Positions 4,990-57,624 of a DNA stretch of 64,000 bases are shown here, in pieces; positions within the stretch are counted from its first letter, which is position 1, and each line of letters begins with the position of its first letter. Below the pieces are notes generated by a model that was not told the origin of the DNA, ran no database searches, and worked only from the letters and a program-made list of their open reading frames with translations. The stretch is from an uncultured bacterium (GTDB taxonomy: Bacteria > Krumholzibacteriota > Krumholzibacteriia > Krumholzibacteriales > CAZTHK01), in contig CAZTHK010000002.1 of the NCBI GenBank assembly GCA_964613215.1, positions 149,685 through 213,684 on the forward strand, given 5' to 3'. A program made the position numbers and the translations under genes.

Positions 4990-6321
4990 GTGCGGGGATT
5001 CTCCATTGACACCCGCCGGGATTGCCGGCAGAAGCTCTTCGTGGCTCTGCCCGGCGGGCAGGGGGATGGCCATGATTATCTGGAAGATGCGGTGAAGGAG
5101 GGAGCCAGGGGGGTTATGATTTCTTCGGACCGGGATTTCAGTATTTCCGCAGGGCATGGTGAAGTGGCTGTGTTTAAAGTGTCCGATCCCCTGTATGGGC
5201 TTCAGACTATGGCTCAGGAATACTGCAAGGAGATTGATCCGGCCATTGTAGCCATTACAGGGAGTACCGGCAAGACCACCACCAAGAATCTGATAGCATC
5301 CATACTGGGGAGTAATTACCGCAGTTACTCCACCCCCGGCAATATGAATAATCATATCGGACTGCCACTTACCGTTCTGGGTATGGAGGGGGGAGAGGAA
5401 TTGCTGGTGGTGGAAATGGGAGCCAACCATAAGGGTGAAATAAAGAGACTTTGTGAGATATGCAGGCCCACTACCGGGGTGGTTACCAATGTGGGCAGGA
5501 GCCATCTGGAATTCTTTGAGTCCCTGGAGGGTGTTGCTGCGGCCAAGGCGGAACTGCTGGAGGCGCTTCCCCCTGAAGGACAGGCGGTTCTCCCCGCAGA
5601 TGACCGGTTTATCGATTTTCTCAGGGGCAGGACCGAAGCTTCTGTGATCACTTTTGGTTTCCATGAGCAGGCAGACTGGAGTATCGGGGAGGTTATCCCT
5701 CTGGACAGCGGGGGATATGAATTCACGGTGGGTGGAAATGTAATGAGGACGGTCATGCCGGGAAGGCATAATCTTCTTAACGTGGCGGCGGCGGTGGCAA
5801 CTGCTGCTTCACTGGATATCGATATGAAAGAAATCATCTCTGCAGTGGCCGATATCAGGCCCGATCCCGGGAGGGGGGGACTATTTGATATTGGCGGGAT
5901 AATTTTCATGAATGACTCATACAATTCAAATCCCGACTCCCTGAGGGTCTCTGTGGATACATTCATGGAATTGGAGGTAGAAGGAAACAGATGGCTGGTT
6001 CTGGGGGATATGCTGGAGCTGGGGGAGCAGAGTGAAGGGTTACACCGGGAAGCTGGAGAATACTGCGGCAAGGCGGGGGTGGATGGATTGGTTACTCTGG
6101 GGGATAAAACAGTGGAACTGAGCCGGGCCGCTGCGGAACAGAGAAAAGCTCCCTCCAACATAAGCCACTTCATGGAGGTGGAGAAGCTGAGTCATTATCT
6201 TAACCGTTTTCTCCAGCCGGGGGATGCCGTTCTGGTAAAGGGTTCGCGGGGCATGCGGATGGAAAGGGTTATGGAAATTATCGAGAAGCTTCGTGAAACG
6301 GAGAGAAGAAGGATAAACTGA
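4990..6321 (+). CDS. murF: UDP-MurNAc-pentapeptide synthetase MurF (track start is GTG at 4990; true N-terminus probably further upstream, see findings)
   Basis: ITGSTGKTTTKN P-loop, Mur ligase C-terminal domain; dcw position. Confidence 0.85.
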   Translation: MRGFSIDTRRDCRQKLFVALPGGQGDGHDYLEDAVKEGARGVMISSDRDFSISAGHGEVAVFKVSDPLYGLQTMAQEYCKEIDPAIVAITGSTGKTTTKNLIASILGSNYRSYSTPGNMNNHIGLPLTVLGMEGGEELLVVEMGANHKGEIKRLCEICRPTTGVVTNVGRSHLEFFESLEGVAAAKAELLEALPPEGQAVLPADDRFIDFLRGRTEASVITFGFHEQADWSIGEVIPLDSGGYEFTVGGNVMRTVMPGRHNLLNVAAAVATAASLDIDMKEIISAVADIRPDPGRGGLFDIGGIIFMNDSYNSNPDSLRVSVDTFMELEVEGNRWLVLGDMLELGEQSEGLHREAGEYCGKAGVDGLVTLGDKTVELSRAAAEQRKAPSNISHFMEVEKLSHYLNRFLQPGDAVLVKGSRGMRMERVMEIIEKLRETERRRIN

Positions 6322-22641: not shown

Positions 22642-22726
22642 TTGGCGGCATTTCACTTTCATAATCAAATATAATGCTTTACCGGGCCGGAATATTTTTA
22701 GCGGGTAAATAAGATTACTATTCAGA

Positions 22727-22766
22727 AGGGGGATTGAGAGTGTTTCCGGTTGACCGTGGGATATAT
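22727..22766 (+). repeat. Degenerate 4th copy of the GAGTTCC-hairpin motif (GAGTGTTTCCGGTTGACCGTGGGATATATG)
   Basis: alignment to copy 3 (GAGTTCCACGGGTTTGGCCGTGGGTTATG). Confidence 0.3.
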
Positions 22767-23107
22767 GGAGAGGGTTCAGCAGGACAGGCAGATTTGGAAT
22801 CCTTATCCCGGAATGGATTCTTTTCACTGATTTAAACCACGAATACGGAAGGGCTGTTCCGGATGTTGCTGGCCTGTATTTTCTGCAGAGGACAGAAAAC
22901 CTCAGAAATCCTTAACAATTCTCACCGGTTTCTGTCAAAGGAAAGCAAGCAGGTTTATCTCTCTGCATAAGGCTCCGGCTGAGTTGGGGGATTTTTCTGG
23001 AACGCCAGCCAGAGTTATAATAGGATAAAGTCTGTTAGAAGGAGCTGCTGTAGCCGGAACGGGTGGGGAATTATGTTGTTTAATCTGCAGGGAGTATATT
23101 CAGGGAG

Positions 23108-29377: not shown

Positions 29378-30537
29378 CCTGCTGACCGGCCGGTTTTCTC
29401 CAGTAGATTTTTCTTTCTGTTAATTCCCAGAGTGCGGCAGAAACATTTCTCCAGCATTCCCCCCACAGTGGCCCAGGAATATAGCAGAGCCGTTTCCCTT
29501 CCCCGCTTTGCCATAGCCGTTCCTGACTCCCCGTTTTGGGCAATCCTTATTATGGAATCCGCTATGGAAGCGGGGTCACGGGGCCGGGCCAGTAAACCGT
29601 TATTCCCATGATCGACTATGGCCCGGTAACCCGGTATTCCGGAAGCTACCACCGGCACCCCCGATGCCATCGCCTCCAGCAGGATAATGCCGAAGCTCTC
29701 CCGGCCGGTAGCAGGAGAACAGAATATATCGGCGCTGGCATAGTAGCGGGGAAGCAGGGAGGGCGGAACCCTTCCCGCCGTGACGATCTCTCCGCTGTAG
29801 AGACGGATCTGGCCGGGGGTAAACAGTTTTCTTAGCTTTCCCTCCCCCACCAGGATAAGTCTGATCCTGCGATTGATTTTCCTTCTGATCAGGGGAAGGC
29901 TCTTTAGCAGGTAGGGAAGGCCTTTTCTCTTGTCCATCCTGCCCACAAATAGAATATTCAGGCTGCCGTCATTGAATTCATCCAGGGGAGGGTTGGATGG
30001 GTGAAAGCGCTCACAATCCACCCCGTTTGGTATGATGGTATACTCGCCGGGGAAGTATCTGGCGGCGAACTGTCTGGCCGATGGCGACACTGCAATCCTG
30101 ACATCCAGCTTCTCCGCCCTCTTGAGCAGGGGTTTCTGAAAAATTCTGTATCCCAGATTGCTATCGGCCGCTGCATGGAAGGTTCCCACCAGTTTCTGAC
30201 CGGGGAGGGCGGCCTTGAGGGCAACCAGTGGAAGGGAGGGCACCAGGGGGCAGTGAGTCTGAATAATATGGAAATTTTCTCTCCGGAATATCCTTTCCAT
30301 CTGCCCCTTCAGGTTAAATCCAAGGGTGACGTTTACCCAGGCTCCGTTAACCGGGACCAGGGCATTTCTGCCGATCCGGATAACCCCCTCGCAGGGTTGA
30401 CAGTCACGCCCATACCGGGTGGTAATAATGGTTACCCGGTGGCCCCTGGACCTAAGCTCCCGGGCGGTGTAATGAACCGCCTCGGTTACTCCGCCGGGTC
30501 TGGGATAGTATGATTGTGACACGATGCCTATATTCAT
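29374..30537 (-). CDS. Glycosyltransferase family 4 (GT-B fold); start at ATG 30537 (MNIGIVSQSYYP) overlapping lpxL-like stop as ATGA
   Basis: GT4 N-term (SYYPRPGGV), C-terminal E-X7-E-like region (FGIILLEAMASGVPVV). Confidence 0.8.
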   Translation of the reverse strand: MNIGIVSQSYYPRPGGVTEAVHYTARELRSRGHRVTIITTRYGRDCQPCEGVIRIGRNALVPVNGAWVNVTLGFNLKGQMERIFRRENFHIIQTHCPLVPSLPLVALKAALPGQKLVGTFHAAADSNLGYRIFQKPLLKRAEKLDVRIAVSPSARQFAARYFPGEYTIIPNGVDCERFHPSNPPLDEFNDGSLNILFVGRMDKRKGLPYLLKSLPLIRRKINRRIRLILVGEGKLRKLFTPGQIRLYSGEIVTAGRVPPSLLPRYYASADIFCSPATGRESFGIILLEAMASGVPVVASGIPGYRAIVDHGNNGLLARPRDPASIADSIIRIAQNGESGTAMAKRGRETALLYSWATVGGMLEKCFCRTLGINRKKNLLEKTGRSAG

Positions 30538-31385
30538 ATCTCTCTGCTCCAGAGATTTCTGAACATGCACCACTGATCGTAGTTTTCCAGAATAATACCT
30601 TCCATCTTGCCATACAGCAAATTGATTATTTCCTCATCCCTCATATTCATACTCATATCTTTATTCAGAACCTCCCTGATAACTATATCATAGCTGTCGT
30701 TTCCCCTTCTCCTGGAATAACCGGCCAGCACAGGTGCTCCCGAATGCCGGTGCAGCCGGACTGCCCCCCCAGGCATAATAACTTTTCTTCCGAAGAAGGT
30801 TACCGGTATTCCGCCTGTGTATATATCTCCGTCCAGAAGAAGTGCCGCTATTCCGCCCGATTTAAGCCCCCTTAAGAGCTTCCTGTAGGAGTGACCGGGA
30901 TTGATCACCCGTATTCCTGTTTTTTCCTTGGTTTCCTTCACCGGAGCGGTAAACAGGGTGTTCATCTGCACGCCGGCTACCACATACATCTTATATCCCA
31001 GGCTGCTGAGGTAGAATGCCGCCCTTTCCCAGTTCCCAACGTGAGCGGTAATGAGAATAGCTCCCGGACCATTCCGAACCGCCCTTTCCAGTATCTCTCT
31101 CCCGTGGAAGGTGATACTCTCCGGATACACAGCACCTCCGGTTGCACTCAACTCGAACATATCGATGATATTGGCGGTATGATTCCTGAATATATTAAAT
31201 ACAGTACTCCGGCCGGCCTCCTTGCCCACGGTCAACAGGTTATTTTTTATGTTGTTCCTTCTGTTAACGGATATCAGGTACAGTATTGCCGCCGATATGT
31301 CCCTCAGCAATCTCTTTATTATCCCGGGGCATGCCCCGGTCAGGGCTGTAACAGTACTGTATATGAGGTTACCTGCGTAAGTCAC
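30534..31385 (-). CDS. Lysophospholipid/lipid A acyltransferase (LpxL/HtrB-like LPLAT superfamily)
   Basis: HX4(D/E) acyltransferase motif ITAHVGNWE; size and fold of lauroyl/myristoyl acyltransferases. Confidence 0.7.
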   Translation of the reverse strand: MTYAGNLIYSTVTALTGACPGIIKRLLRDISAAILYLISVNRRNNIKNNLLTVGKEAGRSTVFNIFRNHTANIIDMFELSATGGAVYPESITFHGREILERAVRNGPGAILITAHVGNWERAAFYLSSLGYKMYVVAGVQMNTLFTAPVKETKEKTGIRVINPGHSYRKLLRGLKSGGIAALLLDGDIYTGGIPVTFFGRKVIMPGGAVRLHRHSGAPVLAGYSRRRGNDSYDIVIREVLNKDMSMNMRDEEIINLLYGKMEGIILENYDQWCMFRNLWSREI

Positions 31386-31650
31386 AATTATTCCAGAATA
31401 GGCAGTAGCCTCCGGCTTGTCAAGGATGTACCCTGCAGGATTTTCCTGATTTTTCCGGTCAGAATATCTATCCGCTATACTGTTCAGTAAAGGTAATGAT
31501 AATTGCGGTGTATACAGGCCGCTCTGTTTCAGCTATCCGGCAGAAACAGAATGGATCCCGGAGTAAAATCAAGTAAAAATTTGAGCTCAAATACCAAATG
31601 CCGCACCTTTTGAACCTTACGAAGTTTTCAGGGGAAGAGGCACTCCATGC

Positions 31651-31847
31651 TCAACCTCAATCCGTCAATAACACCATTGATGCCGGTCGGCCCGGTGGCC
31701 AATTGACGCCGCTTTTTCTTCCATTCCCGGAATCTGGCAACTCCACCATCCGGGGATGAATAAGAAGAGGCCTGATGTGGGCAGGTTGGCCTGTCAACGG
31801 AAAGAATCTCTGGTCCGGTCATTGTAGTTTTACCGGATTGAGGTTAA
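31651..31847 (+). mobile_element. MITE-like element copy A (197 bp) with perfect 10-bp TIRs CCTCAATCCG (31655-31664) / CGGATTGAGG (31834-31843), flanks TCAA/TTAA
   Basis: related copies at 45787-45967 (same orientation) and ~35462-35647 (inverted); 40-nt near-identical block GCCGCTTTTTCTTCCATTCCCGGAATCTGGCAAC. Confidence 0.75.
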
Positions 31848-31974
31848 ATGCCGGACTGCTGATTGTGGGAGATATGTTATTAATACCGCCATTTGTATTA
31901 ACAGGTAAGTTGCTTTATTCCAGTGGCACACTTCTGGCAATTGTATCTGTACCGCTGTAAAGAAGGGAGTCGGA

Positions 31975-32394
31975 TTGCAAGTTTCCACTGAGAATACACT
32001 TTTCATGCAAAAAGCAATTTATTACCTCAGCAGGATTATAGCTGCCAGGGGTGTTATCGAAGTGACTGACCGGAAGATCAACTTTCAGGTCTCGTCACTG
32101 GATTGCTCCTTCGGGATTAATGACCTGTCCATTGACATCTGCTCGGTAAAGGATGTATCACTGGCCGGGGGGGATTTCCACATGAAGGTTGTGGTAATTA
32201 CGGAGGAGAAGGACTATGAATTCGTTCTGTCCAAGGGGAAGGAATTCTACGATCTTCTGAACAGGCTGTGCCGGGACCCGGTGGGAGAGAGTATGCATGG
32301 AGGCGGAGAAATGAATGAGTGCGAGTGTGGCTGCAAGATAAACAGCAATTACCGGTACTGCCCCTGGTGTGGAAAGAAGAACGCAGCTGGCTAG
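31975..32394 (+). CDS. Hypothetical protein with C-terminal zinc-ribbon (CECGC...CPWC)
   Basis: 139-aa ORF; 4-Cys ribbon at C-terminus. Confidence 0.45.
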   Translation: MQVSTENTLFMQKAIYYLSRIIAARGVIEVTDRKINFQVSSLDCSFGINDLSIDICSVKDVSLAGGDFHMKVVVITEEKDYEFVLSKGKEFYDLLNRLCRDPVGESMHGGGEMNECECGCKINSNYRYCPWCGKKNAAG

Positions 32395-32406
32395 CAGAAA
32401 TTCCTG

Positions 32407-32628
32407 TCAGAATATTTTCCTCACCAGATAAAGAATCAGGGTAAGAACTACTGATATAAGTATTGCACTGGTGACGGGTATGTATATGTGGATATTCTCC
32501 TTCTCGATCCTTATGTCGCCGGGGAGGTTAAACAACCAGGAAAATCCACCCTTCCATACCAGCAGGCCTAGTATGGTTATCACTATTCCCACTATAAATA
32601 TGATATGTCCGGCGCTGCGAAATGGCAA
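32407..32628 (-). CDS. DUF2905 family small membrane protein
   Basis: 73 aa, two TM helices flanking NLPGDIRIE..N motif typical of DUF2905. Confidence 0.55.
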   Translation of the reverse strand: MPFRSAGHIIFIVGIVITILGLLVWKGGFSWLFNLPGDIRIEKENIHIYIPVTSAILISVVLTLILYLVRKIF

Positions 32629-32997
32629 TTAATTCTCCTTCTTCCGGAGGGGAATGTCTTAAACGGCGGGTTCGATAATAACTGCCGTGTTTACTTTATA
32701 TAACTTCAGCACTGACCTGGTATTTTAACATTTGCCCCGGCTTAATCAAATCATAATCGATACAGATTGCTGGCCGGCCGGATTATCTCTTGATGATTCA
32801 GAATCAACAGGCAGGTGTGGTTTGCTGCAGTAACATTCATGTTTCCTTCCGGTTGAGAATACAGAGACCCATAAGGCCGGGTTTATCCCCTCTGATCACA
32901 TAATTATCACCTGAACATCGTCATTTGATAGCGTGAAGCATTGATCTGGCAGTTTAATCAGGGGATATCTGTTCAGGCAGGTCTCATGAATATATAA

Positions 32998-35271
32998 CTA
33001 TATCATAAACAGATACTGCAACTTCATGAAGTACTGGCGGTCGGTTACAGCATAACCCTGCCTGCCGTAATCCTCCATGCCGGTTTCCCGGTAATCGTAT
33101 GTGGATCCGATGTAGAAGACGGTGAATGAATTAATCCGGTAGCTCAGCAGGGGATCAAAATCCCAGTGCCCGAACCGGTCGTTGTACTGGGCAACCAGGC
33201 GGAGGGAAAGTTCCCTGGATATCTGAAGGGATAACCTGGTCCATAGAATTGACTGGGAGAACAGACGCTCACCACTGTCAAGACCGTCACTGTATATTCT
33301 GCTGAAGTCAGCCGATAACAGCATCCTGTTCAGGGGCTTTATTTCAGCTGAAAATCCGTATCTGATTTCTTTCCCCATAACCATGTCCCGGCGGGCGATT
33401 CTGTGGCCGTAGTTGATATTGGCACCAAGTTTGAGTGCCCCGGTGGGCTGGGTGCTGAAGTAGGTATGGGCCTGCCAGATGTCTCTGAATTGTATATCCC
33501 TGAACAGCTCGTTGCTCCGCATATAGCTGGAGTGTATCCTCGTCTGGCCGGCCCGGAAGGACATCACCATATCGGTGTTGATCCATTCATCCTTCCTTGT
33601 TCCGCTGAAGTTCCATTCCCTGGCCATATGGATATTTCCCTCCAGGGTTTCCAGGACTTTGCTGTGGTCGAACCTCAGTATGCCCCAGCCGCCCAGCATG
33701 CCCATGCGAGCGTTGTTGGATGGCTCCATCCCGTTGTCAGCCCGGAAGGTGGGGCTGAGCTCCCGGTAGCTGGCTTTCAATAAGTAATTTGCGGTATTTC
33801 TTGAAACCTCACCGGTGAAGGCGTGGCCGGGAAAAGCTTCTCCGTCCAGGGCGGAGGTGTAACTGCCTCCATCGAATGTTTCTGTCCGAAGGGCCTTGTC
33901 ACCCAGGGCGGGATTGTCAACCTCCCTGGTATAGCTTGAGAGGAATTGGAAACGGGCGGAGTTGCTGGGGGAGAGGCGAATGTTGCCGTCTATCCCGGCC
34001 AGGGAGCCGGAGCCTCCCTGATCGAAGCGCCGGTCGGTGGCAATAATACCCAGATGAGACTGCTCTCCCAGGTCACGCTTGTATCTCAATATATTGGAAT
34101 AGCTCTTTCCATTCTGCACTATCTCGCTCTTCTCCTCGAAGGGGATTATTATGGCTGAATGCTGGTCCCGGGCGGTAAGCAGGGCGAGGCTGTTGGGACC
34201 CTTGCGCCATGTCAGTTTGCCGGCTATGATAGGGTCATTGATAGCCCGGGTGTAGACAGCATCGAAGTAGGTGTCGAAGAGATCGCTGCCCTCCTGGAAG
34301 AAGGGCCTCTTCTCCGGGTACTGGAGTGCGAAGGTGGTATTGACATCGATCTGGGCGGCATCGGCTTCCACCTGGCTGAAGTCAGGGTTCAGGGTCACTT
34401 CCGCCTTGAGTTCGGAGGATATGTCGTAGGAAATGCCCAGGGCTGCGTCGGCCACCAGGTCGCCGTTATCCAGGTAGCCGCTTTCATTCATGGAGGCGGA
34501 CTGGTGAGCAACTACCGCCGGAAGCAGCTGAAACCCCGACCCCGGCTCAACGCCGGAGATCCCCTCCATGATTCCCCACTGACAGGGCCAGCAGGATTCG
34601 TCGCGGTCGTATGCGGCCCAGGAGTACTGATAACGCGATTCCCGGGGGCGGTTTCGCCAGAAATCCACTCTCCAGACCTGTTCCCGGCGGTTCGGAAAAT
34701 GAAGGCTGGCAAAAGGTATGGCCATCTCCACCACCCACCCGAAGCTGGTAATCCTTCCGGCTGTTTCAAAGATCATGTCATATGACATATCCTCATCATT
34801 GGATGAGGAGTACAGAATATCTCCGGGTATACCGTAGGGGTTGGAGAGGATTTCATAGGCATAGGTGGCCTCTCCGTAGGTATCCAGGCACAGCCCCACA
34901 TAATCATCCGAATAGAACTTATCCCTCTCGCAGAAGGAGGCCCTTACCTTTTCGGGATTATCATAACAGAGCCAGCCCAGATAGAGGTTTTCCCGGTCGT
35001 AGGTGACCATTACCTCGGTCTTGACTTCGGGCTCCGTCTGGTCACCCGGATTGTGCTCCACGAAGTTTTCCGCCAGGGCGGCTCCCCTCCATCCCGGGTC
35101 ATCCAGCCTGCCGTCTATCTCTATGGTTCCGCGAGCCGGTGATACGTTAAGCCGGGGATGGTAGACCGGGGTGAATTCACCGCCATCCTCTGGGAATACA
35201 GGTGAAGTTCCGGACAGGATTATAACCGGCAGTACTATTGTAATTATTATAATGTAACCGGGATGGTTCAA
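32998..35271 (-). CDS. DUF5916 / CBM9-like domain outer-membrane protein (757 aa, signal peptide)
   Basis: N-terminal signal peptide; CBM9/DOMON-like N-domain (IDGRLDDPGW...ENFVEHNP) followed by long beta-rich C-terminal region ending in aromatic residue. Confidence 0.65.
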   Translation of the reverse strand: MNHPGYIIIITIVLPVIILSGTSPVFPEDGGEFTPVYHPRLNVSPARGTIEIDGRLDDPGWRGAALAENFVEHNPGDQTEPEVKTEVMVTYDRENLYLGWLCYDNPEKVRASFCERDKFYSDDYVGLCLDTYGEATYAYEILSNPYGIPGDILYSSSNDEDMSYDMIFETAGRITSFGWVVEMAIPFASLHFPNRREQVWRVDFWRNRPRESRYQYSWAAYDRDESCWPCQWGIMEGISGVEPGSGFQLLPAVVAHQSASMNESGYLDNGDLVADAALGISYDISSELKAEVTLNPDFSQVEADAAQIDVNTTFALQYPEKRPFFQEGSDLFDTYFDAVYTRAINDPIIAGKLTWRKGPNSLALLTARDQHSAIIIPFEEKSEIVQNGKSYSNILRYKRDLGEQSHLGIIATDRRFDQGGSGSLAGIDGNIRLSPSNSARFQFLSSYTREVDNPALGDKALRTETFDGGSYTSALDGEAFPGHAFTGEVSRNTANYLLKASYRELSPTFRADNGMEPSNNARMGMLGGWGILRFDHSKVLETLEGNIHMAREWNFSGTRKDEWINTDMVMSFRAGQTRIHSSYMRSNELFRDIQFRDIWQAHTYFSTQPTGALKLGANINYGHRIARRDMVMGKEIRYGFSAEIKPLNRMLLSADFSRIYSDGLDSGERLFSQSILWTRLSLQISRELSLRLVAQYNDRFGHWDFDPLLSYRINSFTVFYIGSTYDYRETGMEDYGRQGYAVTDRQYFMKLQYLFMI

Positions 35272-35461
35272 TGATCCTCTCCATCGTTGCAGATTTGGTT
35301 AGATGCGGCAAGATGTGCCGGTGGCACATCTTAGTTCTTATACGTTTATTTCTCCGGATAAGTTTCCTGTTTCCCGGATTATGAAATTGGAGGGAAGCAT
35401 AGAGAAGTTCCCCGCCGTTTTCCGGGCCGGATGTATTTAATATTATAAAATAATCTGCTGT

Positions 35462-35647
35462 TCTCAACCGGCATAATTATTTTTACCCGGATTATTCACG
35501 AGAAGTTACAGCTTTCACTCTTGACCGGTACTAATTATTCATCCCCGGGTGGTGGAGTTGCCAGATTCCGGGAATGGAAGAAAAAGCGGCCTCAATAAGC
35601 GACAGGTGCAAACAGCATCGATGGGATTATTGACTGATTGAGTTTAA
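35462..35647 (-). mobile_element. MITE-like element copy C, inverted relative to copy A; 5' half near-identical to A, 3' TIR degenerate
   Basis: reverse complement aligns with A over ~110 nt including TTAAACTCAATCAGTCAATAA end and GCCGCTTTTTCTTCCATTCCCGGAATCTGGCAAC block. Confidence 0.65.
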
Positions 35648-35777
35648 CCTCAGCAGGGTGTTGATTCCGGCGGATCAGAGCCGTATGTAAACTCATCATC
35701 CCGCTGGACACCAGGCCGGTAATTTGTTATAATTATTCAAATTATAGTAGTATTAAACTTGACGGGAGTTACCGGAA

Positions 35778-38297
35778 ATGATCTTGCCCTGGAGAAGAAT
35801 AGCGGTGTCTACGGCGGTTCTGGTTTTGATTTCGGCGGGGAGTATATTCCCGGATCAGTCACCGGAATTTGACCGCAGCGTGGAAGAGATACAACTTAAA
35901 ATAGAACAGCGGGGATACCACTGGACCGCAGAGCATAATTCCATCACAGAGTTGAGCGGGCGGGAATTTCAGCGAATGCTGGGGGCCAGGATACCCCGGG
36001 GGTTGAAGAGGAGGCTGAAGGAGAAGGGGGATGATCATTATCTCTCTTCCTATGCCCTGCCGTCCAGCTACGACTGGCGCGATTACGGTATGGTTACACC
36101 GGTAAGGGACCAGGGGAGCTGCGGCAGCTGCTGGGACTTCGCCGCCATGGGGGCACTGGAAGCAGTTCTTATGATAAATGAGGGGATAGAGTACGATCTG
36201 TCAGAGCAGCAGATCCTGTCCTGCGAGACCGGTGGATACGGCTGCGACGGAGGGTGGTACTCCTGGGCATGGGACTATATCAGGGATAACGGTTCGGTAT
36301 CGGAAACCTGCATGCCCTACATGGCCTCCGATACCATTCCCTGTACCGATTCCGGCTGTGAGAAACTGGCCACCAACGGCGGCTGGGTGGATGTTCCCAA
36401 CAATGTAACCGCCATCAAGGAGGCGGTGATGATATCACCGGTGGCTACCACTTTTCATGTATACGATGATTTCAGATACTACGGCGGCGGCTGCTACGAG
36501 CATGAGGGGAATGATCCCATAAATCATGCCGTGGTTATAGTGGGATGGTGCGATACCATGTGTGCGGGGGAGGGAGCCTGGCTGGTAAAGAACAGCTGGG
36601 GAACCGACTGGGGCCTGGACGGATATTTCTGGATAAAGTATGGAAGCTGCAATATCGGGTATGCCACCCAGAGGGTAATGTACGATTCCGGCACCGACAT
36701 AGTCTATCAGGGTAACAGCATAGAAGATCCGGGAGGGGATGGGGACGGAAGAGCGGACCCGGGTGAGACTGTGGATATGACAGTGGATATTTTCAATGAG
36801 ATCATTTCACCCGCCAGAACCGGTATAAGTGCAACCATTTCATCCCTGTCGGAAATCGCAGAAGTAATACAGCACTATTCTGATTATCCCGATATGCCCC
36901 CGGGCGGAAGCTGCGGCGGCAGCCCGCCCTTTGAGTTTACCGTAGATCCCTTCGCCGCTCCCGGTTCAGAGGCGGAGTTTGTGATAACCATCAGTGCGGA
37001 CGGAGCATACTCCAGCCAGGATACCTTCAGTATCATGACAGGGGACTGTCCCGTTCTGCTGGTGGATGATGACGACGGTGCCGGTCTGCAGGAATACCTG
37101 GAAGTTTCCCTGGATAATAACAATTACCTCTTCGAGGTGTGGGATGAGAGCGAATCAGGCTATATAACCGGTTCCGTGATGCTGGATTATTCCGTGGTGG
37201 TGTGGATGACCGGGGTGCAGGGAGATATAGAGGAGGATAACCGGACAGCTGTATCCTCTTTTCTGGATAGTGGGGGGAGGCTTCTGATTACCGGTCAGGA
37301 TATCGGCTGGCAGCTCAACCATGACAATATCCCTGAGGAGGAGCAGTTTTACCGTGATTATCTGCGTGCTGAATACATCTCGGATGATTCGGGATACCGG
37401 AGCCTGACCGGAGTGGCCGGTGATCCGGTGGGGGATGGGTTGTTCTTTGACATAGGAGGGGGAAGTGGCAGCTGTTCCCAGGATTATCCCAGCGAGATAG
37501 AACCTTACGGAGGGGGCAGTGCCGTTCTTGAGTATGCCTCCGGCGAGGAGGGGGCGGTGAGATACCAGGACACTGAAAAGCTGATATATCTGGCCTTCGG
37601 CCACGAGGCGGTCAATACCTCTGCGGACAGGGATACCCTGATGAGAAGATGTCTGGAGTGGCTGGTTGATCAGTGGCCTGATCTGGAGCAGCCCCGGGTC
37701 CAGCTGGTTTCTCCCGACGGTGGTGAGGAGATGGAAGGGGGGGAGAGTTTCGAGATAACATGGAGCGCCTCCGATAACAGGGGGGTAAGTGATATCGACA
37801 TACTGCGTTCCTATGACAGCGGGGCCACCTACCCCGATACCGTCGCCCTGGGAGAGCCCAATGACGGAAGTTACATGTGGACCATTCCGGACAGTTCCTC
37901 TTCCACATCCAGAATCAGGGTTATTGCCCATGATTCTGCCGGATTGAGTATGTACGACCAGTCGGATTCAGACTTCTCCACCTCTACCACCTCCGGCAAT
38001 GAGAAGGTACCGGCGGCGGGAAGGGTGAACCTGTCCCAGAACTTCCCCAATCCCTTTAATCCCTCCACCAGCATAGAATTTAATGTCCCCCGTCCAATGC
38101 ATGTCAGGATCGAAATCTACGGTGTCAGGGGCCGGCTGGTAAAGAGGATTCTGGATGAAAGGGTGGAACGGGGACAGCATGAGGTAAAGTGGGAGGGCAG
38201 GGATTCACAGGGCAGGCCGGTGGCATCGGGATTGTACTTCTGCCGGTTGTTTACCCCGGAGGTGACCAGATCGGTCAAAATGGTGCTGATACGGTGA
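35778..38297 (+). CDS. Secreted papain-family (C1) cysteine peptidase with T9SS (Por) C-terminal sorting domain
   Basis: signal peptide; active-site Cys context QGSCGSCWDFAA, His (NHAVVIVGW), Asn (NSWGTDWG); C-terminal ~80 aa with NFPNPFNP...GLYF motif typical of T9SS CTD. Confidence 0.85.
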   Translation: MILPWRRIAVSTAVLVLISAGSIFPDQSPEFDRSVEEIQLKIEQRGYHWTAEHNSITELSGREFQRMLGARIPRGLKRRLKEKGDDHYLSSYALPSSYDWRDYGMVTPVRDQGSCGSCWDFAAMGALEAVLMINEGIEYDLSEQQILSCETGGYGCDGGWYSWAWDYIRDNGSVSETCMPYMASDTIPCTDSGCEKLATNGGWVDVPNNVTAIKEAVMISPVATTFHVYDDFRYYGGGCYEHEGNDPINHAVVIVGWCDTMCAGEGAWLVKNSWGTDWGLDGYFWIKYGSCNIGYATQRVMYDSGTDIVYQGNSIEDPGGDGDGRADPGETVDMTVDIFNEIISPARTGISATISSLSEIAEVIQHYSDYPDMPPGGSCGGSPPFEFTVDPFAAPGSEAEFVITISADGAYSSQDTFSIMTGDCPVLLVDDDDGAGLQEYLEVSLDNNNYLFEVWDESESGYITGSVMLDYSVVVWMTGVQGDIEEDNRTAVSSFLDSGGRLLITGQDIGWQLNHDNIPEEEQFYRDYLRAEYISDDSGYRSLTGVAGDPVGDGLFFDIGGGSGSCSQDYPSEIEPYGGGSAVLEYASGEEGAVRYQDTEKLIYLAFGHEAVNTSADRDTLMRRCLEWLVDQWPDLEQPRVQLVSPDGGEEMEGGESFEITWSASDNRGVSDIDILRSYDSGATYPDTVALGEPNDGSYMWTIPDSSSSTSRIRVIAHDSAGLSMYDQSDSDFSTSTTSGNEKVPAAGRVNLSQNFPNPFNPSTSIEFNVPRPMHVRIEIYGVRGRLVKRILDERVERGQHEVKWEGRDSQGRPVASGLYFCRLFTPEVTRSVKMVLIR

Positions 38298-38541
38298 GCG
38301 CCCGGGGAAGGGGGTGTCTTTTCTAGCCGGCTGAGAGGAGCCGGCCGGGACAAATGCCTGTCAGCCCCGTAGCGGGAGTGAAACTGACCGGTATGTTAAA
38401 GTGAAGGTTACCGATCCTGCAAGTCCGGATTAAAGAGAGTTGAAGGGAATGGATAGAATCTCACCTTGACTGAGACGGGGCTACCAATACCGCTTTCTGC
38501 AATTACAGGTAAAAGTGATCCATCTGCCGGGAGGCGGGGAG

Positions 38542-43823: not shown

Positions 43824-45698
<1,875 letters not shown>

Positions 45699-45786
45699 CA
45701 GTTGCCGGACCGGATATTTGAGACAGGAAATTGCGGGGGTTGATTATCAGCCCCCGCTTTGTGTATATAACCTGGCGATCTGACTA

Positions 45787-45967
45787 TTAACATCGATCCG
45801 TCAATAATATTATTTATGCTGATTGACGAAGCATTCTCTGCCATTCCCGTAATCCGGCAGCCACACCACCTGCGGAGGGATAAATGGAGAGATAATACAG
45901 GAGGGCTGGCCTGTCACCGGAAACAATTTGTAGCCCGCTCAGCATGATTTTAACGGATTGAGGTTAA
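45787..45967 (+). mobile_element. MITE-like element copy B (181 bp), TIRs CATCGATCCG / CGGATTGAGG (8/10 match), flanked by TTAA on both sides
   Basis: aligns with copy A at both ends and over the internal CCATTCCCG.AATC.GGCA block; lies in convergent ompA/mazG intergenic region. Confidence 0.7.
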
Positions 45968-46009: not shown

Positions 46010-46831
46010 TCAGGGTTGCTCTTTCGACTCCTGCCACAGCTCCTCCATTCTGTGCAGGGGGAGTGATTCCAGCTTTTCGCCCCTCTCACCGGCAAGTTCT
46101 TCCATCCTGCGGAAGCGCCTATGGAATTTGGAGTTGGTCTCCTCCAGGGCATTCTCCGGTTCTACATTGAGTCTTCTGGCCAGGTTCACCACGGTAAACA
46201 GTATATCTCCGATCTCCTCCCTGATCTCCCGGTGTGCCCGCCTGCTGATCGATTCCTCCAGTTCCTTCTTCTCCTCCTCCAGCTTTTCCATGATTCCGGA
46301 GATGCCGGGCCAGTCGAATCCGAAATCCGCAGCCATCTTCTGGAGCAGGCCGGCCTTCCGAAGGGGGGGCATTACGGGGGGAAGCGAGTTCATCGAATAG
46401 TGTTCCTTTCTGTTCTCCTTCTCCTTCTTCTTGACCCGCTCCCAATTCCTGATACTGTCGGATACCGTTTCCACCCTCTCCGAATCGCCGAACACATGGG
46501 GATGGCGGCGGATTATCTTGGCATGAGCCCGCGATATTACCTCCTGCAGGGAGATATCCTCCTCCCTGGCAAGCAGCTGGTATGTGAACATCCACAGGAA
46601 AAAGACATCCCCCAGTTCTTCGATAATTCTCCCGGTTCGTCCGGATTTCTCAGCCTGAAGGAGTTCGTAACCCTCATCGATAAGGTCGGTGATGATACTA
46701 TCCATGGTCTGGGCCCTGTCCCAGGGACAGCCGTTTTCACCCCTGAGGGTGTTCAGGGTTTGCCTCAGCGAAGATATCGCTTCCTCTATGGTATTGTGGC
46801 GGTTTTTCATAGGGGTGGAAGTATATACCAT
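46010..46831 (-). CDS. mazG: Nucleoside triphosphate pyrophosphohydrolase MazG (start may be the ATG at 46810, MKNRHN)
   Basis: tandem MazG domains, GCPWD and EE.GD motifs. Confidence 0.8.
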   Translation of the reverse strand: MVYTSTPMKNRHNTIEEAISSLRQTLNTLRGENGCPWDRAQTMDSIITDLIDEGYELLQAEKSGRTGRIIEELGDVFFLWMFTYQLLAREEDISLQEVISRAHAKIIRRHPHVFGDSERVETVSDSIRNWERVKKKEKENRKEHYSMNSLPPVMPPLRKAGLLQKMAADFGFDWPGISGIMEKLEEEKKELEESISRRAHREIREEIGDILFTVVNLARRLNVEPENALEETNSKFHRRFRRMEELAGERGEKLESLPLHRMEELWQESKEQP

Positions 46832-54872: not shown

Positions 54873-54945
54873 GGGAAGGTAGCTCAGTCGGTAGAGCAAC
54901 TGATTGAAAATCAGTGTGTCGGCGGTTCGATTCCGTCCCTTCCCA
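54873..54945 (+). tRNA. tRNA-Phe (anticodon GAA), 73 nt, CCA not encoded
   Basis: hand-folded cloverleaf: acceptor GGGAAGG/CCTTCCC, D-arm GCTC-AGTCGGTA-GAGC, anticodon stem ACTGA/TCAGT with loop TTGAAAA, T-arm GGCGG-TTCGATT-CCGTC, discriminator A. Confidence 0.9.
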
Positions 54946-54977
54946 TATTGTTATTTGCCACCAGATAATTAATTGTT

Positions 54978-55169
54978 TTAACCAGCCTTGTTCTCTGACT
55001 CTATCTTCTTCATCAGTTTTTCATGTTGGCTGGAAGCCTGTGTTATCCTTGCCAGAATTGCCAAAAAACATGCACCACAGATAATTCCGACACCCATTGT
55101 AGCTTCCGTTAAAAATAAAGCTCCAACAAAAGCCACTAATAAAGCGATGATAACCAGTAAAATAGTCAT
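54978..55169 (-). CDS. Possible small membrane protein (63 aa)
   Basis: ORF only; two hydrophobic segments; no homology recognised. Confidence 0.25.
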   Translation of the reverse strand: MTILLVIIALLVAFVGALFLTEATMGVGIICGACFLAILARITQASSQHEKLMKKIESENKAG

Positions 55170-55585
55170 TTTACCTCCTGATTTAATCTATTGTACAAAG
55201 ACCTTCCCGAGTTACAATAAAGCAAAGTTTTTATTATTTCTTAAATTGATTTTTAATATTTCCCCAGCTCCATGAAATTAGTTTATCACGAATCAACTTT
55301 AAACTCTATATTGCAGCAAAGCGCTGAGTATGAATTCGTAATGATTTTTCCAGGTTTGGGCCGGCATATAATAATAATTCCTGGATAATAAACTTTTTTC
55401 TGCAGATCACCCTCGTTTGATTGAGAAATACTTTCGCTCTAACATGTTGTTCAATACACTTATGTAAGGGAAAAAACAGAACGGTTAATAGTGGTTCCCG
55501 GGTTTCCCTGTGAATCCTGGTGATTCTCGGGATACTACCCGGACCTGGTTAGGCATTCGGCCAGGTCTACACTATCACCGGAGCT

Positions 55586-55602
55586 TAAGGCCGGCTGATA
55601 TG
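55586..55602. promoter_or_regulatory. Operator-like inverted repeat TGTCA-CTTTC-TGACAG, related to the AbiEi promoter palindrome
   Basis: shares core TGTCA-N5-TGACAG with 56078-56102 site; a further TGACA half-site follows 10 nt downstream. Confidence 0.3.
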
Positions 55603-56044
55603 AAAATGTTATAAATTGTCACTTTCTGACAGTATCTGACATATAACGGATGGATATACCGAATAACTGGTTGTTTTATAGATTCTTGTTAATCCGGGCA
55701 GTTAAATTAAATGTGGAGTTTCCCCAAAAAATGATGCAGGAATTTCATAAGATAATAAATAACAAGCCGTTATTAATATTGATAAGTGGAATATGTTTTC
55801 CGGGGTTTTTTCATCCGTTGCCTGGTGCTTCAAAACCCTCTGCGGGGAGAGCGGGCATGGTTTTCTGCCCCGGAGGGGCAGAAAGAGCGAGCCCGAGACG
55901 GGAGCTGCGATTCCCACGCTGGGGGAGTCGACAGCGATTTTGAAACACCAGGCAGCGGAATCATAGAGGTCGAATGAAAATTGGGGAAACTCCAGAGAAG
56001 AGTTACCTTGGTTTTTCTGATTTCGCTATCAGTTCGAATATTTC

Positions 56045-56102
56045 TTGCATAATCAAGCTTTATGTATATAATTGATAGAAACTGTCACAATATGACAGTT
56101 TC
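56045..56102 (+). promoter_or_regulatory. abiE promoter (-35 TTGCAT 56045-50, -10 TATAAT 56067-72) with overlapping perfect palindromic operator GAAACTGTCA-CAATA-TGACAGTTTC (56078-56102)
   Basis: 10-bp perfect inverted repeat with 5-nt spacer starting at predicted TSS, immediately upstream of AbiEi-like gene. Confidence 0.5.
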
Positions 56103-56110
56103 TTGCAAAT

Positions 56111-56761
56111 ATGAGGTATATAATGCAACCATTGACCAGGAAAGTTTTTGAAGAACTACCGCGCAGTGATTTCACCATGGAGGATGTAATTGCCTTATTC
56201 CCCGTCAATGGTCAGCGCAGGTACGGGCTGGTAAAACGGGCTATTGCCAGTGGAGAGGTGATTCATATCCGAAGGGGGCTTTATTGTCTCGCTCCACAGT
56301 ACCGGAAGAGAAAGGTGAATCTATATTCTTTAGCTCAGCGCATCAACGGTCCCTCGTATATCAGCCTTGAATCAGCCTTGAGTTGGTATGGTTGGATTCC
56401 CGAAGCCGTATATACACTAACCAGTGTATCATTAAACAGGTCCAGGGATTTCGATACTCCCCTGGCTTTTTTCAGCTATACCAGGGTTCCCCAGAAGGTC
56501 TTTTATACTTCTGTGCAAAGGATTACTGATGATGATGACAATTCTTTTCTGATGGCAACACCGCTGAAGGCTCTGGCTGATTATGTGTATGTGAATAAGA
56601 AGGACTGGGCTGGTGCAAAACCTGTAACCGAGAGCATGCGAATCGATCGGGAGGAGTTAGGATCAATAACTGACGGCGAGATTCAACTGCTGATCAGTAA
56701 TTACAATAGCCGTAGAGTTAAAAAATTTCTTAAGGGATTGGAGAGGGATCTTAAATCATGA
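56111..56761 (+). CDS. AbiEi-like antitoxin/transcriptional regulator (type IV TA); probable start at second ATG 56123 (GAGG 6 nt upstream)
   Basis: N-terminal winged-helix region with conserved IHIRRGLYCL (AbiEi_4-like), ~210 aa, translationally overlapping downstream nucleotidyltransferase gene (ATGA). Confidence 0.65.
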   Translation: MRYIMQPLTRKVFEELPRSDFTMEDVIALFPVNGQRRYGLVKRAIASGEVIHIRRGLYCLAPQYRKRKVNLYSLAQRINGPSYISLESALSWYGWIPEAVYTLTSVSLNRSRDFDTPLAFFSYTRVPQKVFYTSVQRITDDDDNSFLMATPLKALADYVYVNKKDWAGAKPVTESMRIDREELGSITDGEIQLLISNYNSRRVKKFLKGLERDLKS

Positions 56762-57624
56762 GCGTTAAAATTATTCAGAACAGGCTTGATTCCTATAATT
56801 GCAAAACGGACTTGGAGGAGGAGCAGGCTCTCCGGGAAATCACTCAGGAAGTTTCACTGGCGGCGCTGTCGAGAACCGATTTTTTCAAATCCGCAGCATT
56901 TCAGGGGGGGACCTGCCTTCGTATATTTTACGGATCCAACCGTTTCTCGGAGGATTTCGATTTTCTTTTAAAGAAACCTGACGGCAGTTTTAATCTGAGC
57001 CCCTATTTGAATAAAGTTTCAGATGAATTGGATGCATATGGTTACAAACTGGAATTATCAGACCGGTCGAAGGAGGGAGGCACAGTTAAAAAAGCATTTA
57101 TCAAGAATTCTTCGATCGGTAAAATTTTAAGGTTGAAGTATTTGAAACCTGATAGATCCATGCGTAAAATCAGAATTAAGTTCGAAGTCGATACCAATCC
57201 CCCGGCGGGAAGCAATTATGAAGTCAAATATATGGATTTTCCATTTGTTAGTTCAGTAACAGTTCAGGATCTTCCCAGCCTTTTTGCCGGTAAAATACAT
57301 GCAATGTTGTGCAGGGATTATGTGAAGGGAAGGGACTGGTATGATTTCATCTGGTATACCTCGAGGGGAACCGGTATTAACTACCGGTTTCTTGCTTCGG
57401 CTCTAAAGCAGCAGGGCCCATGGAGGGGGGAGGATATGGAGGTTGGCAGCAGATGGGTTCTGGAGGCACTGCGAGAGAAGATAATCACACTTGACTGGAA
57501 GAAGGCAAGAGAAGATATAAGGCGGTTTTTACAGCCCTCCGAACTGGCATCGCTGGAGCTGTGGTCGCAGGAGCTATTCCTTGACCGCCTGGAAAATTAT
57601 GCTTCCGGAATGAATAAATATTAG
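56758..57624 (+). CDS. AbiEii/AbiGii-family nucleotidyltransferase toxin (type IV TA, DUF1814)
   Basis: conserved GGTCLRIFYGSNRFSEDFDF nucleotidyltransferase motif region; 288 aa; paired with AbiEi-like gene. Confidence 0.75.
   Translation: MSVKIIQNRLDSYNCKTDLEEEQALREITQEVSLAALSRTDFFKSAAFQGGTCLRIFYGSNRFSEDFDFLLKKPDGSFNLSPYLNKVSDELDAYGYKLELSDRSKEGGTVKKAFIKNSSIGKILRLKYLKPDRSMRKIRIKFEVDTNPPAGSNYEVKYMDFPFVSSVTVQDLPSLFAGKIHAMLCRDYVKGRDWYDFIWYTSRGTGINYRFLASALKQQGPWRGEDMEVGSRWVLEALREKIITLDWKKAREDIRRFLQPSELASLELWSQELFLDRLENYASGMNKY

Follow-up and report, generated by a model that had tools for sequence, protein, structure and literature searches.

The three related non-coding repeats of about 180 bases each that lie within a 64-kb window (the whole stretch of DNA analysed) of an uncultured Krumholzibacteriota-like genome raise two questions: what kind of sequence they are, and whether the two inverted copies, A and B, brought in the three genes between them. 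The first-pass annotation had proposed a MITE-like family, and all three copies were located where it had them, although its coordinates took in the 4-nt flanks. Copy A occupies 31655-31843 on the plus strand (189 nt), starts with CCTCAATCCGTCAATAA… and finishes with …CCGGATTGAGG; it is flanked by TCAA on the left (31651-31654) and TTAA on the right (31844-31847), a putative 4-bp target duplication in which the left flank, read directly from the sequence, is 1 base off the right one. Copy B (35462-35643, minus strand, 182 nt) has an intact 5' end (ACTCAATCAGTCAATAA) with TTAA outside it (35644-35647), and its inner (3') end is degenerate (CCGGTTGAGA), without a matching flank. Copy C (45791-45963, plus strand, 173 nt) lies between TTAA at 45787-45790 and TTAA at 45964-45967, which form a perfect 4-bp direct repeat. 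The TTAA-type 4-mers reported in the annotation were therefore present, but its A/B/C labels were inconsistent, the TTAA/TTAA copy being the one at 45787.

The ends common to A, B, and C are CCTCAATCCG(TCAA) and …CGGATTGAGG, beside the TTAA-type 4-mers. The terminal inverted repeat (TIR) is perfect over 10-12 bp in A, in keeping with the perfect 10-bp repeat described earlier; two mismatches affect the 5' TIR of C, whose 3' TIR is intact, and in B the 3' TIR is degenerate. The subterminal GTCAATAA is present in all three copies, as had been claimed, and A and B, whose 5' ends point outward, both retain (C/A)CTCAATC(C/A)GTCAATAA. No ORF is shared or conserved among the copies, C carries a 16-nt deletion relative to A, and the G+C content of the elements (45-53%, versus 51% for the window) shows that they are not AT-rich. 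As in MITEs, they are shorter than 500 bp (173-190 nt) and without coding capacity, and their TIRs fall in the range of ~4-30 bp. A relic of the family had also been suggested near 22862, but the similarity there is at chance level (best blastn E = 5.7; no nhmmer match at E <= 10).

The similarity among the three copies is far above chance: in global alignments of the interiors only, compared with shuffles, z was 13.6 for A-B and 11.8 for A-C, and the core motif occurs three times against 0.00 expected and the end motif three times against 0.13 expected. With blastn, A and B are 86% identical over 111 nt, and A and C are 72% identical over 146 nt, with a second aligned segment of 31 nt at 81%. 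The near-identical internal block that was noted previously is real, with 41 nt of A (31708-31748, plus strand) matching B (35550-35590, reverse complement) exactly, within a 56-nt stretch at 98% identity. Logan contig L121 terminates inside both 41-nt blocks, at window positions 31719 and 35579; since these contig ends fall inside the shared block, short-read assemblies of this organism break exactly here. Along its length, the identity of B to A is 72%, then 98% in the 56-nt core, and then roughly random (Fisher p = 7e-5). The description of the 3' halves as diverged is better restated, as the 3' half of B has no detectable homology to A or C (z = 0.2-1.2). This mosaic suggests a short gene-conversion tract between A and B; B may be an older or chimeric copy whose 56-nt core was homogenised with A, probably by short gene conversion between nearby inverted copies.

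The same core could also be read as a sign that the elements, MITEs by origin, were later exapted, so that the conserved core or the TCAAT motifs would now bind a protein or help to regulate the flanking envelope genes (lpxL, OMP, protease, and OmpA). The contrast between the core and the sequence alongside it, the five TCAAT/ATTGA motifs found in every element, and the cell-envelope genes that adjoin all three copies are in favor of this, but we regard it as improbable: the core of C is only 73% identical to that of A, which argues against strong constraint on it, and a simpler account of the mosaic is gene conversion between two inverted copies that lie 3.6 kb from each other. Three copies are, moreover, too few for calling the association with envelope genes non-random, and the predicted promoters fall outside the elements. 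The latter observation also bears on the suggestion that the elements donate promoters, which did not hold up, as the best sigma-70-like promoters (lpxL and protease) and the conserved sigma-54-like box (139-aa gene) are all external to them, and native promoters are likely to lie outside the elements. It is very doubtful that the 56-nt core, at 98% identity in inverted A and B, is a maintained module, be it an operator or RNA that co-regulates envelope genes or the substrate of a recombination switch through which the 3.6-kb stretch of OMP, DUF2905, and zinc-ribbon genes changes orientation with respect to the promoters of lpxL and the protease. Gene conversion between copies of a mobile element is the reading we prefer for the core.

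Metagenome contigs were scanned with a 22-base pattern covering the ends only, which returned L123 and L124. On the first of these (SDBS01066864.1), a metagenome contig unrelated to the window, a fourth element, D, was found at 124-313; at 190 nt, it is almost the same length as A (189 nt), its TIR is perfect over 14 bp, with the same 14-bp ends, and 9 TIR bases beyond those specified by the search pattern agree. Its flanks, TTAG/TTAG, are a perfect direct, not inverted, repeat. The interior of D shares nothing with those of A, B, and C (z about 0), and shared ends together with an unrelated interior correspond to the type II MITE pattern of PMC10969869. Other searches added no members. The L124 match was put down to chance, as the inverted repeat there cannot be extended; a 23-base core pattern gave 0 matches in metagenome contigs; and a 17-base core scan of genome contigs gave at least 116 loci in unrelated phyla, none of which extends past ~30 nt, and these were rejected as chance matches. 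In viral contigs, the only match to the 17-mer end falls within an ORF on a fragment of a T4-like phage, without a partner end, and was treated as chance. The phage-fragment match agrees with D at 5 extra bases. No element copies were observed across about 100 kb of relatives' loci, and the interior of A, B, and C was unrelated to any sequence retrieved. The known family comprises four elements, three in the 64-kb window and one on the other metagenome contig.

Empty sites were then sought in relatives, which are syntenic but distant (53-82% amino acid identity), and two of the three window sites, A and C, proved to be "empty" in them. At site A, the spacer is 59 nt in relatives L131, L129, and L130, versus 589 nt in the window. 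In all three, lpxL (63-65% amino acid identity; the L129 and L130 proteins are identical to each other) is divergent from the adjoining upstream gene, which in L131 is the 139-aa gene (82% amino acid identity) and in L129 and L130 is truncated by the contig end, so that only its conserved 5' end is visible. Between lpxL and the 139-aa gene of the window, a lineage-specific insert of 488 nt (31432-31919) is missing from the 59-nt spacers of the relatives, with conserved spacer edges on both sides. A is the central part of this insert, and the remaining ~290 nt are unique and unexplained; neither terminal repeats nor other copies were found for these extra ~290 nt or for the spacer around B. Because the ~290 nt are also lineage-specific and the relatives are distant, the exact insertion junctions at site A are unreadable. 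At site C, the MazG-OmpA spacer of relative L122, which shares 12-gene synteny, is 75 nt, scarcely more than a terminator hairpin, versus 311 nt in the window. The equivalent hairpin is found at the same position in the window (45733-45757), and C lies between it and the MazG stop codon. Judging from these spacers, A and C were inserted in this lineage only, A in a divergent promoter spacer and C beside the terminator hairpin that serves both of the convergent genes.

These comparisons also bear on whether the repeats might be structured non-coding or cis-regulatory RNAs rather than mobile DNA, with the "TIRs" as a closing helix. The elements do fold better than shuffles (z = -3.7 for the plus strand of A and -2.4 for that of C), local hairpins such as GTCAAT…ATTGAC survive the 16-nt deletion in C, and A and B are each oriented toward the adjacent downstream gene. 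However, the two strands fold about equally well, as inverted repeats should, and in the RNAalifold consensus the covariation term was unfavorable (positive) on both strands, with 2-4 compensatory pairs only; searches of Rfam were empty at the gathering score and yielded no meaningful match when relaxed to E <= 10. Each of the three copies has a gene context of its own, C lying between convergent genes, and they share no common position relative to genes. B is without the 3' half, D retains the ends and not the interior, and the element is missing from relatives at the same sites; it is therefore very unlikely that the repeats are RNAs of this kind.

The first-pass annotation further read A and B as the arms of a composite transposon with cargo, and its identification of the bracketed genes was correct: they encode a DUF5916/CBM9 protein, a DUF2905 protein, and a protein of 139 aa whose C-terminus carries a CxxC…CxxC zinc ribbon. 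On this reading, a MITE-bounded, TIME-COMP-like unit of 4 kb would have brought all three genes together. The inverted geometry is real, with both intact 5' ends facing outward, the outer flanks TCAA and TTAA differ by one mismatch, and mobilisation of intervening DNA by MITE pairs has been demonstrated (PMC4133298). We nevertheless give the reading very little credence. In L131, the 139-aa gene is already divergent next to lpxL, with a 59-nt spacer and no element, and L129 and L130 have the same spacer, with the upstream gene cut by the contig end; because the gene adjoins lpxL in a relative without the element, the left junction predates A, and A was inserted between resident neighbors. The outer flanks do not discriminate for a composite unit, since TTAA is the general target. 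The G+C content of the bracketed genes (51.7%) is close to that of their surroundings (52.9-53.4%), the inner end of B is degenerate, and no second copy of the A-cargo-B unit was seen. The annotation had asked whether the cargo is absent or relocated in relatives. The 139-aa gene is in place beside lpxL in L131. The neighborhood of the DUF5916 gene differs in each of the five relatives compared, which could be taken in favor of the composite reading but, as it differs every time, says nothing about site B or the cargo. An exact-protein look-up of the 139-aa protein matched the same contig only, with no identical protein in other strains. By these comparisons, A and B simply happen to lie on either side of three resident genes, which they did not import, and the claim that the pair carried an outer-membrane gene cassette was removed as unsupported.

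We hold with good confidence that A, B, and C represent a non-autonomous DNA transposon of the cut-and-paste type (MITE, 173-190 nt). The earlier proposal of a non-autonomous TIR element family at TTAA-like sites is borne out by the independent element D, with the same ends and TTAG/TTAG flanks, and by the two empty sites. The elements are an ordinary kind of mobile DNA that was inserted between pre-existing genes. A DDE-type transposase encoded elsewhere would recognise the terminal inverted repeats CCTCAATCCGTCAA and place the element in intergenic DNA at tetranucleotides that resemble YTAR (TTAA, TTAG), duplicating the 4-bp target, and the family may still be mobile. That the window encodes no transposase agrees with a Pfam scan, in which none of the ORFs >= 180 aa contained a DDE transposase domain; no parent IS with these ends and no transposase were found in the window or elsewhere. 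An IS200/IS605-derived PATE was rejected, as it would be expected to have subterminal hairpins in place of TIRs and to insert 3' of a tetranucleotide with no duplication, whereas true 10-14-bp TIRs are present here and D is bordered by a direct 4-bp repeat; so was a DGR or retron, as all copies are intergenic and the same scan of ORFs >= 180 aa gave no reverse transcriptase. Two of the three comparable flank pairs are perfect (TTAA/TTAA in C and TTAG/TTAG in D, with TCAA/TTAA in A and none for B). As TTAA is palindromic, the window flanks could equally be an extension of the TIR, and D alone separates the two readings; a duplication length of 4 bp rather than TA is what we infer, and an IS630-like TA duplication would still be compatible.

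As for parentage, a 4-bp YTAR duplication has been documented for IS5 (PMC5009759). All intact flanks here, among only four elements, are TTAA or TTAG, i.e., YTAR, and the elements are further like IS5-family IS and derived MITEs in their apparent 4-bp duplication and intergenic insertion. However, IS5-family ends start with GG or GA, whereas the present elements begin with CC, and the IS1380 family has CC ends and a 4-5-bp duplication. From the flanks, IS5-like parentage is plausible, and the IS1380 family fits equally well.

The family adds a MITE to a candidate phylum known from metagenomes alone and implies a still-unseen transposase. Two intergenic regulatory regions, by lipid A and outer-membrane genes, would have been remodelled through insertion, one of which sets a conserved, predicted sigma-54-like promoter apart from the neighboring lpxL promoter.

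Among known systems, the Neisseria Correia elements are similar in that they are intergenic, bounded by TIRs, roughly 100-200 bp long, and have a TA-containing target. A further resemblance is their capacity to form long hairpins and to part promoters or create new ones; they differ from the present family in having 26-bp TIRs, a TA duplication, hundreds of copies, documented promoters of their own, and an IHF site. TIME-COMPs, composite non-autonomous transposons from two Tn3-derived MITEs (PMC4133298), likewise consist of two miniature elements, intact at their outer ends, that enclose several kb of ordinary genes, but the ends of A and B are not 38-bp Tn3-type inverted repeats, the apparent duplication is 4 bp rather than 5-6 bp, the A/B unit bears no sign of ever moving, and one cargo gene is ancestrally next to its outside neighbor. 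The prokaryotic type II MITEs reviewed in PMC10969869 include Chunjie (Geobacter), QMITE2 (Coxiella), and MITEAba12. The present family differs from these in that no cognate IS was found, it is not AT-rich, its host is of an uncultured Krumholzibacteriota-like lineage, and three copies lie within 64 kb; it resembles them in being shorter than 500 bp, non-coding, and intergenic, with 10-14-bp TIRs, apparent short flanking direct repeats, strong self-folding, and variable size and sequence, its members united by their ends alone.

A, B, and C are three copies of a short noncoding repeat from an uncultured lineage and make up a small MITE family. Direct reading of the sequence and alignment bore out the repeat at the three places listed by the first-pass annotation, whose coordinates take in the 4-nt flanks; with the ends set by the inverted repeat, A occupies 31655-31843 (+ strand, 189 nt), B 35462-35643 (- strand, 182 nt), and C 45791-45963 (+ strand, 173 nt). 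By blastn, A and B are 86% identical over 111 nt and A and C 72% identical over 146 nt and 81% over a further 31 nt, and global alignments of the interiors alone score 11.8 to 13.6 standard deviations over shuffles. The core motif occurs exactly three times in the 64 kb (0.00 expected), as does the end motif (0.13 expected), and a profile search found no fourth copy in the window. A supposed relic of the family near 22862 proved to be at chance level (blastn E = 5.7; no nhmmer match at E ≤ 10). The terminal inverted repeat of A is perfect over 10 to 12 bp, (AA)CCTCAATCCG / CGGATTGAGG(TT), and GTCAATAA lies directly inside the 5' end in all three copies. C lacks 16 nt relative to A, and its 5' repeat contains two mismatches; B retains the 5' end, its 3' end being reduced to CCGGTTGAGA. 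The flanks are TCAA/TTAA for A, TTAA/TTAA for C, and -/TTAA for B. No ORF is shared among the copies, indel lengths are not multiples of three, and the G+C content of the elements is 45 to 53%, versus 51% for the window. In line with what had been proposed, a transposase domain is absent from all ORFs of at least 180 aa in the window.

A lies in the 589 nt that separate two divergent genes, an lpxL-type acyltransferase gene (30534-31385, -) on its left and a 139-aa zinc-ribbon gene (31975-32394, +, TTG start) on its right; B lies in the 506 nt that separate another divergent pair, encoding a DUF5916/CBM9 protein (32998-35271, -) and a protease of the papain family (35778-38297, +); and C lies between convergent OmpA-family (43824-45698, +) and MazG (46010-46831, -) genes. 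Thus, the three share no fixed position with respect to genes. Two more noncoding gaps of unusual length show no significant MITE similarity: one of 369 nt between the DUF5916 and DUF2905 genes (32629-32997) and one of 466 nt between PAS histidine kinase and RecG genes (22642-23107), which contains the supposed relic. Among named homologues, those nearest to the DUF5916 protein are from Krumholzibacteriota or Latescibacteria, and the source MAG is Krumholzibacteriota-like. Farther along, a 216-aa ORF and an AbiEii toxin gene (56111-57624) lie downstream of a tRNA gene (54873-54945), and at 62.3-64.0 kb an incomplete ORF (>390 aa) with a C-terminal HNH nuclease motif runs off the right end of the window; this tRNA-downstream region (54873-57624 and 62.3-64.0 kb) may be a small island.

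The similarity between A and B is a mosaic. Identity is 38/53 (72%) in the 5' segment and 55/56 (98%) in the core (31708-31763 versus 35535-35590), which contains a 41-nt exact block (Fisher p = 7e-5 for 5' segment versus core), and past the core the similarity is not significant (z = 0.2 to 1.2). We infer either that gene conversion acted over a short tract between the inverted copies, which lie 3.6 kb from each other, or that one copy is chimeric. A Logan contig from the same organism (L121, 3861 bp) starts and ends within the two 41-nt A/B blocks; contigs from k-mer assemblers break at repeats, as this one does.

In the collections searched, the nearest relatives were at 53 to 82% amino acid identity, and two loci, sites A and C, were informative. 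One relative's contig (L122, GCA_975972845.1) has the gene order of the window: PAS-HK, RR, HK, epimerase, UvrA, MazG, OmpA, DUF1844, two HTH-cupin genes, GT9, KdtA, and radical-SAM. In L122, MazG and OmpA are 75 nt apart, a distance filled almost entirely by a single terminator hairpin. The corresponding spacer in the window measures 311 nt, and C lies in it with the equivalent hairpin (45733-45757) on one side and the stop codon of MazG on the other. Synteny stops right past the radical-SAM/SPASM gene (window 35778-38500 versus L122 18669-20798), beyond which L122 carries BlaI/BlaR-like genes and the window carries the C1 protease, B, DUF5916, DUF2905, the 139-aa gene, A, and lpxL. At site A, three other relatives' contigs (L131, L129, and L130) encode lpxL at 63 to 65% amino acid identity, divergent from an adjoining upstream gene, which is the same 139-aa gene in L131 (82% amino acid identity) and is truncated by the contig end in L129 and L130. 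In all three the spacer is 59 nt, and its conserved edges are found in the window as GTGCCACTGG (31920-31929) and GTACATCCTTGACA (31418-31431), both in reverse complement reading; 31432-31919 (488 nt) is thus lineage specific. A forms the central 189 nt of this stretch, and the other ~290 nt (31432-31650 and 31848-31919), lineage specific but outside the MITE, are not repeated elsewhere in the window and lack terminal repeats. No copies of the element were found in ~100 kb of relatives' DNA.

These comparisons bear on the proposal that A and B form a composite transposon that delivered the three genes between them. The geometry stands, in that A and B lie in inverted orientation and each has its intact 5' end facing out, and MITE pairs are capable of mobilizing the DNA between them (PMC4133298). 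The evidence speaks against delivery of the cargo, however: the 139-aa gene was already beside lpxL before A inserted, the cargo G+C of 51.7% equals that of its surroundings, and the outer flanks, TCAA and TTAA, are simply the preferred target. We therefore read the bracketing arrangement as the product of two separate insertions on either side of resident genes. The DUF5916 neighborhood is different in each of five relatives, which says nothing for or against cargo delivery.

The elements had also been suggested to donate promoters, but the best predicted sigma-70-like sites for lpxL (31423-31395) and the protease gene (35705-35733) lie outside them, and the matches that fall inside B are all weak (9/12). 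A sigma-54-type -24/-12 box, TGGCACacttcTGGCA (31922-31936, +), precedes the TTG start codon of the 139-aa gene by ~39 nt and is conserved base for base in L131, L129, and L130; in these relatives it lies ~10 nt from the lpxL -35 box, whereas in the window 488 nt are inserted between the two. The visible effect of A is that two divergent promoters which formerly overlapped now lie ~490 nt from each other; any effect on regulation would be speculative. MITEs are a well-known kind of element, and neither the cargo nor the promoter embellishment is supported.

Among JGI metagenome contigs, a scan with the core pattern gave 0 matches, and a scan with the ends only (22 specified bases, 140 to 170 nt apart) gave two contigs, L123 and L124; the L124 hit is a chance match, its inverted repeat failing to extend. 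L123 (SDBS01066864.1) carries element D, 190 nt long, whose 14-bp inverted repeat, CCTCAATCCGTCAA, is perfect and matches at 9 bases beyond those in the search pattern; TTAG flanks the element on either side in direct orientation. A pair of 61-nt direct repeats with 79% identity to each other (L123 5-65 and 360-420) encloses D, a further two-copy repeat of ~200 nt occupies L123 1826-2186, and the host genome appears to be repeat-rich. Separately, 22 nt identical to the 5' end of D, CCTCAATCCGTCAATAATTAGG, 5 bases longer than the search pattern, occur at 5621-5642 of a viral contig (L128, IMGVR_UViG_3300020161_001149), within the final ORF of a fragment from a T4-like phage; no partner end was found on this 5.7-kb contig, and the match is probably due to chance.

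The interior of D is unrelated to A, B, and C in either orientation. This also weighs against the repeats being an RNA element, a reading to which the good folding of the copies (z = -2.2 to -3.7) lends itself; since both strands fold equally well, as is usual for inverted repeats, the covariation term of the consensus fold is unfavorable, Rfam gives no match, and sites A and C carry evidence of insertion, we consider that reading very improbable. The TTAG direct repeat of D, unlike the TTAA flanks in the window, allows a duplicated target to be told apart from an inverted repeat with a palindromic extension. It is possible that TA is duplicated next to a 15-bp repeat, but covariation between the left-adjacent base and the fourth base of the flank (A with A, G with G) slightly favors a 4-bp duplication. 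IS5 elements make a 4-bp duplication at YTAR, a target type that accommodates both the TTAA and TTAG flanks seen here (PMC5009759). Ends and size held in common with different interiors argue that the ends are recognized by a trans-acting protein, and type II MITEs are defined by the same combination, which is how D compares with A, B, and C (PMC10969869).
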